Shown piece by piece: positions 1,592 to 63,467 of a stretch of DNA of 64,000 bases. Every line of letters starts with the position of its first letter. Position 1 is the stretch's first letter. Below the pieces are notes generated by a model. The model searched no databases. It saw only the letters and a program-made list of their open reading frames with translations, and was not told the origin of the DNA. A program made the translations under genes and the position numbers. This stretch comes from a virus (lineage: Duplodnaviria > Caudoviricetes), in the IMG/VR virus record IMGVR_UViG_3300032050_000002; one strand, given 5' to 3'.

Positions 1592-4366
1592 ATGGCATTT
1601 TTAACAAGTAGAACATTAGCATCAGGAGTAACAGGTAGTGATTTACTACATATAGTTATACCTGGAGATATATCACAGGGAAATCCTGCTGGTTCATCAT
1701 ATAAAGCAAATATGGGTCAAGTATTAACCTATGTTAGTCAAAACTTTAGTGGTTTAACGGCATCAACAATAAATGTTAATAATATTAGTGGTAATAGTGC
1801 TAACTTTACTAACATAACCGCAAATACCATAACCACAAATAGTATTAGTGGAACGAATGCTAACTTTACTAACATAACCGCAAATACCATAACCACAAAT
1901 AGTATTAGTGGAACGAATGCTAACTTTACAAATATAACCGCGGACACGATATCGGCGTCCACTTACCTTAATTTACCTGGTAGCAGTTCTGCAAATTGTT
2001 TTAACGACTTTTATGTTGACAATTTGTATGGATGTCCTGACGTAATAACATTTCACGATTCTTATCAGTCAGTCGATTCCAACTCATCAGGATTAATGTC
2101 AAGGTCATTTGGTTCTTATAATAATTCTTATGGAGATTATTCACATACGGAAGGTAGCGGAACTACAACAATATCAGAATATTCTCATGCGGAAGGATTT
2201 AATACACAAGCCGGTTTTAAAGCGTTTTCAGGGGTTTCCGCAAATACAGTGGGTGTTGGTATTATTACATTAACGGGCGGTACTGATTATTCGTCAGAAT
2301 TTTCTCCGACAGGAATATTATTAGTTGGAACTATAAATCCATTTAGTATTTATCAGATTAATTATACCAGCGTTAGTTATATTGGTCCAAACTTTGAAAT
2401 AACTCTAACAGATAATAGCTTGGACGGTACTGATTGTGAATTTGTTGTTGATTTTAATAATTTAAATAGTCTTTCGGCAAATACTGTTTTAGGTAAATAT
2501 TCTCATTCAGAAGGATTTAAAAATAAGGCGTTAGGCCCGAATTCACATTCAGAAGGTTCGTATTTTAAATTTCCACCAAATATATCTTATGGAGAAGGGT
2601 CACATTCTGAGGGGACATATACTAAATCTTATGGAGCTGCCTCCCATTCAGAAGGATATGAAACAAAATCTTATGGAATATCTTCTCATTCAGAAGGAAG
2701 TGGTACAAAATCTTATGGAGTGGCTTCTCATTCAGAAGGTTCATCTACCGAGGCTTATGGGGACAACTCTCACTCTGAAGGGTATTCTACCGAAACGTAT
2801 GGAGAATATTCTCACTCTGAAGGTTATGATTCAAAAACAGGGTGGAGAGGATTTGAAATAACAGGTATAACATCAGGATTAATTACTTTAAATAGTGTTT
2901 ATGGTAATGTTACAGGAAGTTTTTATTCGGGAGAAATTTTATTAATTAACCCATATGGAGTTTATACCTTTAATTCATCAAACGTTTCTTTTAGTTCATT
3001 AACAAATACTCAGATTTTATTAGACGATACAACAATAAATTCTTTTTATGGTGATGTTGCAGATTTAGATAATCTATATGACCCAATTGCAGATAACTAC
3101 AAGTCAACGTCCAACCACTCTGAAGGTTATTTTACAAGAGCGATTGGAAACTATTCACACTCAGAGGGTTTTGAAACAACATCAATAGGTCCGGCGTCTC
3201 ATTCGGAAGGTGTTAACACATATACGTATGGTGAAGGTTCTCATGCTGAAGGTCTTGAAACAAAGACATATGGTGATTTTTCCCATGCTCAAGGTGAAAA
3301 TTCAATTGCGAGTGGAAGAACTTCCCATGTTGGAGGTTATACTAATAACGCGGGGGCAAATTATTCATTTATAGGTGGAGGTAGTGGAAATACAATATAT
3401 TCAGGTTCGCAATTTTCTTCGATTGTTGGTGGTATTGATAATACAATATATAATGCGTCCCCCCCAATTGGGATTACTTCACCAAGTAATTTTTATTCTT
3501 TCATTGGTTCAGGTAAACAAAATACAATTCATCATTACGCATCATACGCAACAATATTAGGAGGTTCTTTAAATACAATTACAGGTGAAAGTCAAACTTC
3601 AAATTTTACAACAATATTAAATGGGTCTGGAAATACAATAAATGATTCAGAAGGCGGAAAAAACAATGAATTTACATTCATCGCGAATGGATATAATAAT
3701 CAAATAAATACAACAAATGTTAGTGGAGAAAATGTACATTCATTTATTTTAAACGGAAAAAATAATACAATAACCCTTTCAGATTATACAACAATAATTA
3801 ATGGGCGTGATAATACAATTGCGATTAATAATGTTAGTTTGGTATTTGGCGAGAACAATAATATGAGCGGGTCGTCATATATGTCCCTCTTTTCAAGGGG
3901 CAGTATTGTAATTAACAGTACTGACGGAGCGATTTTTGGTCAAAGTAACGTGTCTTTAGAATCCGAACATACTTTAATCTCAGGTCAATATAATACTGGA
4001 GATACTCTAACCCACGGGTTTATAACATCTAAAAACTCTAAAATATATAACTGTGAACAATCTTCAATATTAGGAGGAATTGAAAATAATATAATATCAT
4101 CTAGTCAATCTGCAATAATTGGGGGTGAAAAAAATATAATAACTAGTTCATCTAATAAAGGTATTGTTATATTAGGGGCTAGTGGAGTAACAGGAACAAC
4201 CGATTATACCACATACGTTAACGATTTTGTAATAAAGAAGTTAGCTACAGTACCTTTAAATAGTTCTGACCCTGTTGGGGAAGACGGCTCAATAACTTGG
4301 GATAGTACTCATTTTTATTGGAAGGCTAATGGTCAATGGTTAAGAGTAACAGGAAGTACTTTCTAA
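1592..4366 (+). CDS. Tail fibre/adhesin with YadA-head-like (Hep/Hag) SHSEG repeats and beta-helix C-terminal region
   Basis: Many 14-aa G..SHSEG..T repeats, GG..N.I repeats, Ser/Thr/Asn/Gly-rich. Confidence 0.75.
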   Translation: MAFLTSRTLASGVTGSDLLHIVIPGDISQGNPAGSSYKANMGQVLTYVSQNFSGLTASTINVNNISGNSANFTNITANTITTNSISGTNANFTNITANTITTNSISGTNANFTNITADTISASTYLNLPGSSSANCFNDFYVDNLYGCPDVITFHDSYQSVDSNSSGLMSRSFGSYNNSYGDYSHTEGSGTTTISEYSHAEGFNTQAGFKAFSGVSANTVGVGIITLTGGTDYSSEFSPTGILLVGTINPFSIYQINYTSVSYIGPNFEITLTDNSLDGTDCEFVVDFNNLNSLSANTVLGKYSHSEGFKNKALGPNSHSEGSYFKFPPNISYGEGSHSEGTYTKSYGAASHSEGYETKSYGISSHSEGSGTKSYGVASHSEGSSTEAYGDNSHSEGYSTETYGEYSHSEGYDSKTGWRGFEITGITSGLITLNSVYGNVTGSFYSGEILLINPYGVYTFNSSNVSFSSLTNTQILLDDTTINSFYGDVADLDNLYDPIADNYKSTSNHSEGYFTRAIGNYSHSEGFETTSIGPASHSEGVNTYTYGEGSHAEGLETKTYGDFSHAQGENSIASGRTSHVGGYTNNAGANYSFIGGGSGNTIYSGSQFSSIVGGIDNTIYNASPPIGITSPSNFYSFIGSGKQNTIHHYASYATILGGSLNTITGESQTSNFTTILNGSGNTINDSEGGKNNEFTFIANGYNNQINTTNVSGENVHSFILNGKNNTITLSDYTTIINGRDNTIAINNVSLVFGENNNMSGSSYMSLFSRGSIVINSTDGAIFGQSNVSLESEHTLISGQYNTGDTLTHGFITSKNSKIYNCEQSSILGGIENNIISSSQSAIIGGEKNIITSSSNKGIVILGASGVTGTTDYTTYVNDFVIKKLATVPLNSSDPVGEDGSITWDSTHFYWKANGQWLRVTGSTF
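1801..1929 (+). repeat. 60-bp tandem repeat (20 aa NFTNITANTITTNSISGTNA)
   Basis: 1801-1860 is identical to 1861-1920; diverged copies flank both sides. Confidence 0.95.
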
Positions 4367-4536
4367 TTTTTCTTAGGATTGGAATCCTTATTGATTAATC
4401 TCATTAGTCGTAAGGATTCTCTATAATTCTTTTCAAGTTTATCCAATTCCTTTTCAGGAACTCCTCTATCACAAGCCTCTTCATATCTAGCTTTAGATTC
4501 CTCTACTAATTTTGATACTGTTTTAAGTAATTTCAT
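4363..4536 (-). CDS. 57-aa hypothetical protein, not in ORF track (MKLLKTVSKLVEESKARYEEACDRG...)
   Basis: Manual translation; TATTTAT motif at 4542-4548 upstream on the minus strand. Confidence 0.75.
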   Translation of the reverse strand: MKLLKTVSKLVEESKARYEEACDRGVPEKELDKLEKNYRESLRLMRLINKDSNPKKN

Positions 4537-4597
4537 ATACTATAAATATCTCCCAATGTAACATTTATTAAATTACTATCTGTTATATATTTAATTA

Positions 4598-62612: not shown

Positions 62613-63079
62613 TTAATTTTTTTAACACTATTATTATCTACTGTTTCATCATTTGTTTCAGAATCATATACATCATAATCAATTTCATCACCGTCATATA
62701 CGCTAATATCACCTTCATTAAGTATATTTCTAAATAATTCATAAACACTTGATTCATCATAACAACTAATTTCGTGTCTATAAGTTCTTCTAACGTATTC
62801 TGTTGAGTTAACATCAACTTCGATAGAATATAAACCCGCTTTAGGTCTAATTAATGGTATTTGAAAATCATTATCAATATTTTTTTTATATAATTCAAAT
62901 GCGAAATTATAATCGATATATGAATTATTACCGAGACCCATTGTTTTTAAAGCATCAAATGCTGCGGCATCAAAATCCTCAAACTCTGGCTCAGTTTCAC
63001 CATCTAATTCTCTCTGAATTTCTTTTAGTAATATAACTAAAATTTTATCATTAACTTTTTCTAAATTTGATTTTTCCAT
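62609..63079 (-). CDS. Acidic hypothetical protein
   Basis: ORF in minus-strand operon. Confidence 0.7.
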   Translation of the reverse strand: MEKSNLEKVNDKILVILLKEIQRELDGETEPEFEDFDAAAFDALKTMGLGNNSYIDYNFAFELYKKNIDNDFQIPLIRPKAGLYSIEVDVNSTEYVRRTYRHEISCYDESSVYELFRNILNEGDISVYDGDEIDYDVYDSETNDETVDNNSVKKIK

Positions 63080-63080
63080 A

Positions 63081-63467
63081 TTATTGTGAATATACGTTTT
63101 TAACTGGTTTACCGATTTTATTACTGAACCACTCAGGTGCTAAAGTATAGAAAATTGTCTCACCAAACATTAAAACTATTTTATTATAAATACTATTATC
63201 TAACTCAATTAACGGAAAATCTTTTAATTCATAGGTTTCTTCTTCCCACCCATAATCTTCCCATCTTGGATAATATACAAAAGATTCCATTACCGGTTCA
63301 TAATCAATATCTTCATCATCACCATAACCAAAGTTGGCAATAGGATAATATGCTAATGTATCCCCATCAGAATATCTTGACGCCATCTCAACATCTAGCT
63401 CTTCCATAGAATCCAAATAACTAAAAAATGCTGATTTTAGTTTATTTTCATTAATCAATAACTTCAT
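63081..63467 (-). CDS. MKLLINE-tagged hypothetical protein, likely related to 48047..48394
   Basis: Similar N-terminal 20 aa and L(M/L)FG...W C-terminal pattern. Confidence 0.7.
   Translation of the reverse strand: MKLLINENKLKSAFFSYLDSMEELDVEMASRYSDGDTLAYYPIANFGYGDDEDIDYEPVMESFVYYPRWEDYGWEEETYELKDFPLIELDNSIYNKIVLMFGETIFYTLAPEWFSNKIGKPVKNVYSQ

Follow-up and report, generated by a model that had tools for sequence, protein, structure and literature searches.

Why should some 14 late proteins of one phage, to all appearance unrelated to one another, begin with a short stretch that ends in a glutamate behind hydrophobic residues? The question is raised by the first 64 kb (64,000 nucleotides, hereafter the window) of the IMG/VR record IMGVR_UViG_3300032050_000002, a 107,291-bp piece of a Caudoviricetes genome. 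An initial annotation of the window had read these N-termini as a shared (I/L/V)-x-E tag, which directs cargo proteins into the capsid and is cut off there by a protease. N-terminal leaders on the late proteins are a real, strongly non-random feature of this genome; the motif definition given for them at first is too loose for significance. As to their function, we lean slightly towards propeptides for capsid targeting, which would amount to the capsid-targeting sequence (CTS) of phage T4 expanded to several classes. Much of the comparison below makes use of the relative G001, a complete genome of 321,403 bp with terminal repeats, collinear with the window by the common order of eight orthologous genes.

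All 14 N-termini quoted in the initial annotation are present in the DNA where it had placed them, except that the protein assigned to position 23515 probably starts with the ATG at 23521. Internal windows of the same proteins served as background for the motif counts. The loose motif [ILV]xE was found in the first 45 residues of 52 of the 89 window proteins, whereas internal 45-residue windows gave 50.9±3.5; in the first 15 residues it was found in 24 proteins against 20.7±3.5, which is not above chance. As a shared signal the loose tag thus stays at chance level. A sharper, start-anchored pattern, M-K-(x)-Φ-Φ-Φ-[TSKN]-E-[SNED] (Φ, hydrophobic residue; an example is MKFIITESKLENIIFKYLDNQDF), occurs in 30 of the 181 open reading frames (ORFs) of the 107-kb record, against 1.24 expected from its internal frequency in the same proteins (p 5e-31). 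When residues 2-30 were shuffled, the mean was 2.0 and the maximum 9. Within the window alone there are 5 occurrences among 89 proteins against 0.61 expected (p 4e-4); most sharp-tag genes lie outside it, at 75-107 kb of the contig, and only 5-6 inside. Since the sharp pattern was written after the data had been seen, we added a sharing test that uses no regular expression. An N-terminal 10-mer in common with a non-homologous protein (BLOSUM62 score of at least 30) was detected in 30 of 152 cases, and the internal segment sets yielded 0, 2 and 0.

The leaders go together with a particular upstream element. The hydrophobic-hydrophobic-x-Glu motif (ΦΦxE) is present in the first 25 residues of 26 of the 46 genes that have TATTTAT at most 30 nucleotides upstream (internal windows of the same genes, 10.0±2.6) and of 42 of the remaining 135. 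In G001 the numbers are 37 of 81 TATTTAT-headed genes against 14.4±3.0. The motif ATATTTAT(A) stands 4-6 or 15-17 nucleotides upstream of the ATG in about 46 genes, nearly always intergenic and on the same strand. The copy at 43727..43734 (+), for example, ends 5 nucleotides before the ATG at 43740; further copies of this late-promoter-like motif are at 59033, 39254, 32473, 25857, 7928 and 53371 on the plus strand and at 31375, 4549, 63945, 48739 and 58636 on the minus strand. The class with the 4-6-nucleotide distance is exemplified by 59033-59047 and 39254-39268 (+) and by 4536-4549, 31361-31375 and 48727-48739 (-). ATATTTAT heads 15 of 28 tagged and 31 of 153 untagged genes of the 107-kb record, and 17 of 28 tagged and 64 of 336 untagged genes of G001. 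Because in G001 it also precedes TerL, the portal, protease and presumed scaffold genes as well as the small gene that separates portal from protease, it is best read as a late promoter. Several other tagged genes stand behind a headed gene of their unit, as in 43740-44785-45884-46641-48047, and the earlier statement that all tags lie in TATTTAT-headed units is approximately true. That no tag stands behind a host-type promoter is formally correct, none of the 11 genes with the full -33/-7 motif having the sharp tag, but with 1.7 expected this is not significant. Nor does every late gene have a tag: it is absent from the large late proteins starting at 1592, 5595, 7941, 52055 and 53390, and neither the late tail-fibre-like giants nor the replication genes carry it.

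Six window proteins have confirmed short leaders. The 115-residue protein encoded at 48047..48394 (+) has the leader MKFIITE (48047-48067), behind which comes the helix NKIQKVAFKF. The start MK[FY]IITE/NKL (here and below the slash follows the glutamate) is found in about 100 of 118 homologues, a few have instead a MKSLIKKILKEE leader or a longer N-terminal domain, and some lack the leader and begin at the next helix (MEKNKK.., MDKLTK..). The 469-residue DHH-like protein (46641..48050, +; leader MKKLIKE, 46641-46661) has 114 orthologues, in which E7, S8 and G9 are conserved to 100%, 99% and 100%, P3 and P4 are always I, L or V, and P2 is free (K, V, T). Its match to Pfam DHH reached 18.4 bits, below the cut-off of 28.1, and there was no sequence match in the PDB; homologues P0227 and P0234, 652 residues long, are fused forms with GNAT acetyltransferase Pfam domains. 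Three more proteins of the plus strand have no assigned function. In the orthologues of the first (360 residues, 44785..45867; leader MKKITLKE, 44785-44808) Φ-x-E-S-E-L-K is kept and the preceding residues differ in length and sequence. The second (346 residues, 43740..44780; leader MSGKILITE, 43740-43766) has the sharp motif at its start and is the first gene of a late unit; upstream of it are a terminator hairpin (43692-43714) and ATATTTAT twice, at 43717 and at 43727. It has no orthologue in 80 related loci and would therefore be variable cargo. The third (197 residues, 59045..59638; leader MKFIITE, 59045-59065) is preceded by ATATTTATA at 59033-59041, 3-4 nucleotides upstream of the ATG, and its G001 orthologue starts MKFIISE/H. 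The sixth, a 128-residue protein, also without assigned function, is encoded at 63081..63467 (-) with the leader MKLLINE (63447-63467), in which LINE is at the same time a predicted site in the capsid protein of relatives.

A second set of putative leaders, helical, 13-21 residues long and ending in ΦΦxE, is supported by conservation in relatives. For three of its members the conservation confirms the initial assignment. The 163-residue protein at 30870..31361 (-), function not assigned, has the 13-residue leader MKLLETLKSLLLE (31323-31361). Homologues with 28-49% identity keep MKLLxxLKxLIxE, E13 being one of only six columns conserved to at least 90%; other members of the family have an MKELIRQILRE-type leader or MTLIE. 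The 460-residue protein at 32498..33880 (+), preceded by ATATTTAT at 32473, has the leader MKITSLLGKLIVE (32498-32536), and its G001 orthologue starts MRFTQLLTNLILE/QSRFQVLYDK; its C-terminal leucine-rich repeat (LRR) matches are weak, all under the Pfam cut-offs. The 517-residue protein with a dockerin/EF-hand-like segment (25880..27433, +; ATATTTAT at 25857) has the leader MKNRNINKIVSKVLKE (25880-25927). In 46 of its 54 distinct relatives ...L[VI]SK[IV]LNE/ is found at residues 10-20, and the next ~100 residues cannot be aligned. The 57-residue ORF at 4363..4536 (-), with ATATTTATA at 4542-4549, 5 nucleotides before the ATG, is the weakest candidate of the class: its leader MKLLKTVSKLVEE (4498-4536) resembles those at 31361 and 32498 in form, and it is by form that it would belong here.

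A leader is plausible for three further proteins of the plus strand, whose orthologues differ in the N-terminal segment but retain the ΦΦxE that closes it. The 469-residue protein at 39266..40675 (function not assigned; ATATTTATA at 39254) may have a 21-residue leader ending KTLNE/S (39266-39328); the N-terminus of its G001 orthologue has diverged, yet NILIE/Q precedes a conserved YxxSxEEF. The 146-residue DUF5856 protein at 55322..55762 may have a 21-residue leader ending GLVVE/Q (55322-55384), with GLLSE/Q at the same place in G001 and the Pfam domain beginning only at residue 47. The 210-residue protein at 23521..24153, also without assigned function, has an N-terminal helical region ending LLTE/Q at residue 40, and its relatives keep ΦΦxE/Q, some near residue 40 and others at residues 21-24 immediately behind DEIKSLLKKSR. 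One proposed member found no support: the 357-residue DUF5661 protein at 24773..25846 (+), starting MKKLRET, has ΦΦxE in the first 30 residues in only 2 of 52 distinct relatives, its G001 orthologue starting MRKIKLTE.

The families of the proteins at 48047 and 31361 contain the same body with different leaders or with none, and by this comparison the leaders are portable. What they are attached to was surveyed in 59 relatives that keep both the DNA methylase and the DHH-like gene (window 42845-48727; loci L004-L083). The slot between the two genes holds 72 genes of 11 body families, 61-393 residues long, and is empty in two relatives; Φ-x-E lies within the first 13 residues in 69 of the 72. 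Judged from this slot, the leader marks swappable genes. Relatives have a second optional gene slot after the DHH-like gene. At 83-106 kb of G000 (L002, L003) genes for products of 100-130 residues are densely packed on the two strands, and the majority have ATATTTAT to themselves and a leader of the MKFIITES or the MKKxIRLTESDL type; some members of a nine-member family in this block start MVSDKLKKIIF, without the MKFIITE piece.

In the two AlphaFold2 models made, the leader lies outside the fold. The model of the 48047 family (predicted local distance difference test score, pLDDT, 85.8) has values below 50 for residues 1-5, which are nearly invariant, and the first helix begins at residue 7. 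The model of the 31361 protein (pLDDT 84.7) has a separate helix at residues 2-11 (pLDDT 67), a linker at 12-14 holding E13, and a confident domain from residue 15. Foldseek found no match in the PDB for either. An Alt-like ADP-ribosyltransferase, suggested for the 31361 family by conserved R, D and NTS, was dropped because there was no fold match. The leaders do not look like Sec or lipoprotein signal peptides, which have a core of ~10-15 hydrophobic residues after a basic N-region, whereas on inspection only 3-4 hydrophobic residues precede the Glu here. A ribbon-helix-helix N-terminal domain was likewise rejected: Pfam scans gave none and the 48047 model has no N-terminal strand.

Removal of the leaders as in T4 would call for a prohead protease, and G001 encodes one. 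Its Peptidase_S77 protein, of the T4 gp21 type, matched PF03420 at 1e-25 and the PHROG head maturation protease at 3e-44; in IMG/VR at least 598 related stretches came up. It lies among head genes in T4-like order: terminase, portal, a small protein, protease, an acidic 497-residue protein and a Gp23-type capsid protein. The N-terminus of the capsid protein is nearly invariant in all 59 relatives from which it was recovered and contains the predicted site [FHY]LINE/A, invariant in these relatives, just ahead of a stretch alignable to residues 21-62 of mature T4 gp23*; by this alignment the candidate cut follows E60 (LINE/A) or E44 (HLKE/N). Further predicted sites are LI[RK]E/S in the protease of the relatives and the start MxKFGxLKSKIExxLLE/S of the small protein between portal and protease. 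The prohead protease is thus identified in the collinear relative and is absent from the 107-kb record, so for the present genome we infer it from G001. Directly after the G001 capsid gene lies a 136-residue gene (L087:18865-19272) starting MNLRESIKKHLILE, a leader of the IKKILKEE class, with a ATATTTATA motif 4 nucleotides upstream of its ATG.

A T4-like scheme can be put together from these elements. Late in infection the phage would make varied small proteins and a few enzymes, each with one of several leader types: MK-ΦΦΦ-T-E (7-9 residues), MKLLxxLKxLIxE (13 residues), ...LVSKILNE (15-19 residues), MKxLIKKILKEE and MKKxIRLTESDLxRLVKRVVxE. The leader would bind the scaffolding core of the assembling prohead, whereby the protein would be enclosed, and a protease of the T4 gp21 type (Peptidase_S77) would cut after the Glu of ΦΦxE and free the mature cargo. 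In the next infection the cargo would be injected along with the DNA, probably to act against host defences. The genes would be cassettes, consisting of terminator, ATATTTAT promoter, ATG and leader, exchanged among related phages in hypervariable slots. Core binding, enclosure, cleavage, injection and cargo function of the tagged proteins are thought of here by analogy with T4. Such a scheme would account for the position, length, disorder and portability of the leaders, for the invariant Glu and free P2, and for the late timing: fast-swapping accessory genes would be made late because their products act when the next infection begins.

The T4 system offers close parallels. Its propeptides range from 7 residues (Alt) to 65 (gp23), with CTSs of 10-19 residues, and targeting and cleavage are separable, Asp at P1 blocking the cut while loading is unaffected (PMC9026906). 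The internal proteins of T-even phages have nothing but the leader in common, and their genes occupy a hotspot of the genome (PMC12373910, PMC3012670); injection and a role against host defences are assumed for the cargo (PMC9026906, PMC3012670, PMC12373910). The leaders described here resemble the CTS of IPI-III and the Alt propeptide in being short and N-terminal, in preceding unrelated bodies, in the (L/I)-x-E end, in the association with a gp21-family protease and in their location in variable hotspots. The T4 leaders, 7-19 residues long, belong to non-essential proteins; the putative ones described here have 7-21 residues. There are at least 4-5 interchangeable leader classes here and one in T4, and they are found on ~15% of the ORFs of the 107-kb record, where T-even phages have 3-10 such proteins. 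The tagged products include larger, enzyme-like ones, unlike in T4, and the short class has a conserved helix behind its Glu. In the T-even IPI locus, as related in a later paper (Repoila et al. 1994, cited in PMC12373910), different genes with the same leader likewise occupy the same slot; here the corresponding slot is that between the methylase and DHH-like genes, in 59 uncultured relatives and with 11 body families, and many other places of the genome are used as well.

Several observations weigh against capsid targeting. On inspection the T4 leader MKTYQEFIAE shares only the MK start and the ΦxE end with the leaders found here, which suggests that the latter are CTS-like in their working and not homologous to the CTS. 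In the short class a cut at the Glu would leave the conserved helix behind it attached to the product, and the Glu may therefore be something other than a cleavage site. Q or K takes its place in ~5% of the 48047 homologues. ΦΦxE is a motif of low information, and the depletion in the bodies of tagged proteins that was looked for was not found, nor was a consistently basic isoelectric point like that of the T4 internal proteins. Protease and capsid genes were seen in the relative and not in the 107-kb record. Finally, a 199-residue RuvC-like enzyme, not expected to be packaged and absent from the initial list, is encoded at 10660..11259 (+) and starts MKKNLKE/SPK; its PHROG RuvC-like match was 1.5e-7, and the start is conserved in G001 (MKKSLKE/SPK). 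This start could be due to chance. All in all, the initial interpretation of a T4-like propeptide cut after (I/L)-x-E is plausible and agrees with every indirect test run, while the motif was defined too loosely, one member out of 14 fell away and the greater part of the proposed cargo functions found no support. Among these functions the LRR protein is weakly supported, the DHH match is below threshold, the metallopeptidase was not found, and the product of 55322 is a DUF5856 protein. If true, the interpretation would describe an expanded and new form of the T4 capsid-targeting principle.

Processing of many head-internal proteins, inner-body and ejection proteins, after Glu by a diverged gp21-type protease is also known from the giant phages phiKZ, 201phi2-1 and SPN3US (PMC9026906, PMC10052503); in the present clade such processing is predicted. 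The propeptides of these phages often have several redundant sites (PMC9026906, PMC10052503). Their sites are S/A/G-x-E or A-x-E, in long propeptides, and they have no common short tag anchored at the start. They are chimalliviruses or relatives of these and do not possess the T4-type capsid gene set, unlike the clade described here. The latter appears to be a group of freshwater phages. The G+C content of the record is ~30% and its CheckV completeness 37%; megablast found no close match to the window among cultured phages. The sequencing runs listed for the DNA are lake and freshwater DNA metagenomes of 2017-2025, with no RNA run among them. IMG/VR holds more than 596 related contigs, G001 being one, and proteins of the window are encoded on contigs as long as 307,689 bp. 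The window encodes T4-style replication and recombination genes (primase, exonuclease, SbcCD-like gp46/47, sigma factor) and several very large late proteins. The strict tag was not found in Flavobacterium phage immuto, which is among the closest cultured phages (capsid protein 41% identity); a tractable model phage was not found. A search of IMG/VR with the pattern MKFIITE[ST]K returned 10 stretches only and is uninformative about the spread of the tag. That a widespread freshwater clade of uncultured, T4-like jumbo phages uses several modular, interchangeable leaders to load more than a tenth of its proteome, including enzyme-sized proteins and cassettes, for injection is a bolder proposal, and we would give it slightly less than an even chance.

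The main rival explanation has neither head loading nor a cut: the leaders would serve for docking or regulation through a different common partner, for which a phage chaperone, a membrane site or an assembly hub away from the head may be considered, or would act as a stability signal. Portability, protein-level selection and disorder show that a linear motif is recognised, not by what, and the conserved helix after the Glu and the undiminished frequency of ΦΦxE in the bodies are well compatible with docking. Docking leaves unexplained, however, why the sole invariant residue is a Glu behind two hydrophobic residues with a free P2, why the same Glu pattern is found at the predicted head-protein sites of the clade and at the sites of gp21-type proteases (PMC9026906), and why fast-swapping accessory genes should be late. 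We consider this explanation unlikely, though it deserves to be taken seriously.

Common descent would make the leader the conserved N-terminus of one much-expanded family, whose other parts have diverged past recognition, and would leave it without a leader function. There is one genuine paralogue family of nine members, to which the 48047 protein is weakly linked (27% identity, 4e-5), and the proteins at 48047 and 63467 have their first ~33 residues in common, and only these at the level of BLASTP and hhalign. When the first 30 residues of the tagged proteins were removed, BLASTP joined the nine-member family only, and the claim that the bodies are unrelated holds both for BLASTP and for hhalign. 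Scans with Pfam, PHROG and PADLOC gave almost nothing; the few domain hits (sub-threshold DHH, weak LRR, dockerin/EF-hand-like, DUF5856, DUF3293) are mutually unrelated. Bodies of 57-517 residues, with DHH-like, LRR, DUF5856 and DUF3293 domains among them, the different or missing leaders on homologous bodies and the position of the leader outside the modelled fold all speak against a single origin, which appears quite improbable.

Still less probable is a signal at the mRNA level, in which the A/U-rich first codons (AUG AAA UUU AUU AUU ACA GAA) aid initiation on late transcripts that are nearly leaderless, the amino acids being incidental. With ATATTTAT(A) ending 4-6 nucleotides before the ATG in ~30 genes of the contig, many late mRNAs should probably be leaderless or nearly so, and Lys at position 2 is enriched 3.3-fold in all genes. 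The information in 28 aligned tagged starts, however, is at codon positions 1 and 2, with third positions free: the Thr of the tag is encoded by ACA, ACT, ACC and ACG, and a hydrophobic pattern of T at second positions runs on for ~12 codons past the Glu. In orthologues Glu and Ser/Asn are kept where the nucleotides vary, DNA conservation being below protein conservation. These features indicate that the leader is selected at the protein level. Tags are also present on the internal operon genes 44785, 46641 and 48047, which have no promoter of their own, and are missing from many late genes of the leaderless type. A recombination site in the leader DNA, either folded like attC or a boundary sequence, by which the cassettes are mobilised, would suit the cassette-like exchange of tagged genes among relatives but is very improbable too, as conservation is lower in DNA than in protein, and as no inverted repeat or hairpin covering the leader codons was found at eight tagged window starts. 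Folding of the region from -50 to +90 there did not exceed that of shuffled sequences (z -0.4 to +1.3), and two folds of greater strength (z -1.4, -2.0) go back to ordinary upstream terminator hairpins.

Should the leaders prove to be head-loading signals, a sequence rule would list the proteins injected by a very abundant group of lake phages, and the injected arsenal of an uncultured phage would be readable directly from its genome. Injected proteins are the first phage factors to meet the host defences and are very hard to identify without culture. Instead of a handful of internal proteins, the T4 capsid-targeting principle would then cover a large system of several leader classes built on cassettes, and one could try to load foreign proteins into capsids with the short portable tags. 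If the function of the leaders is a different one, a conserved, disordered N-terminus of 7 residues on dozens of unrelated late proteins would point to an unknown common partner.

Two similarities between untagged products of the window were also seen. The late proteins encoded at 52055-52720 (221 residues) and 53390-55282 (630 residues) are alike in their first ~19 residues, MGQIKHYNNGKWTIYTSGE, and in the context of their promoters, GATATTTATAGTTAAAAA. Both are probably fibre or receptor-binding proteins, paralogues that share a piece for attachment at the N-terminus. The small ORFs at 1327-1554 (+, 75 residues) and 12655-12873 (-, 72 residues) are similar, with the pattern ..ITGxxxPxxVYICxxxxxxCxxVxTIxSPxxP.., and each of them, on opposite strands, adjoins a large Cys- and Tyr-rich late protein.

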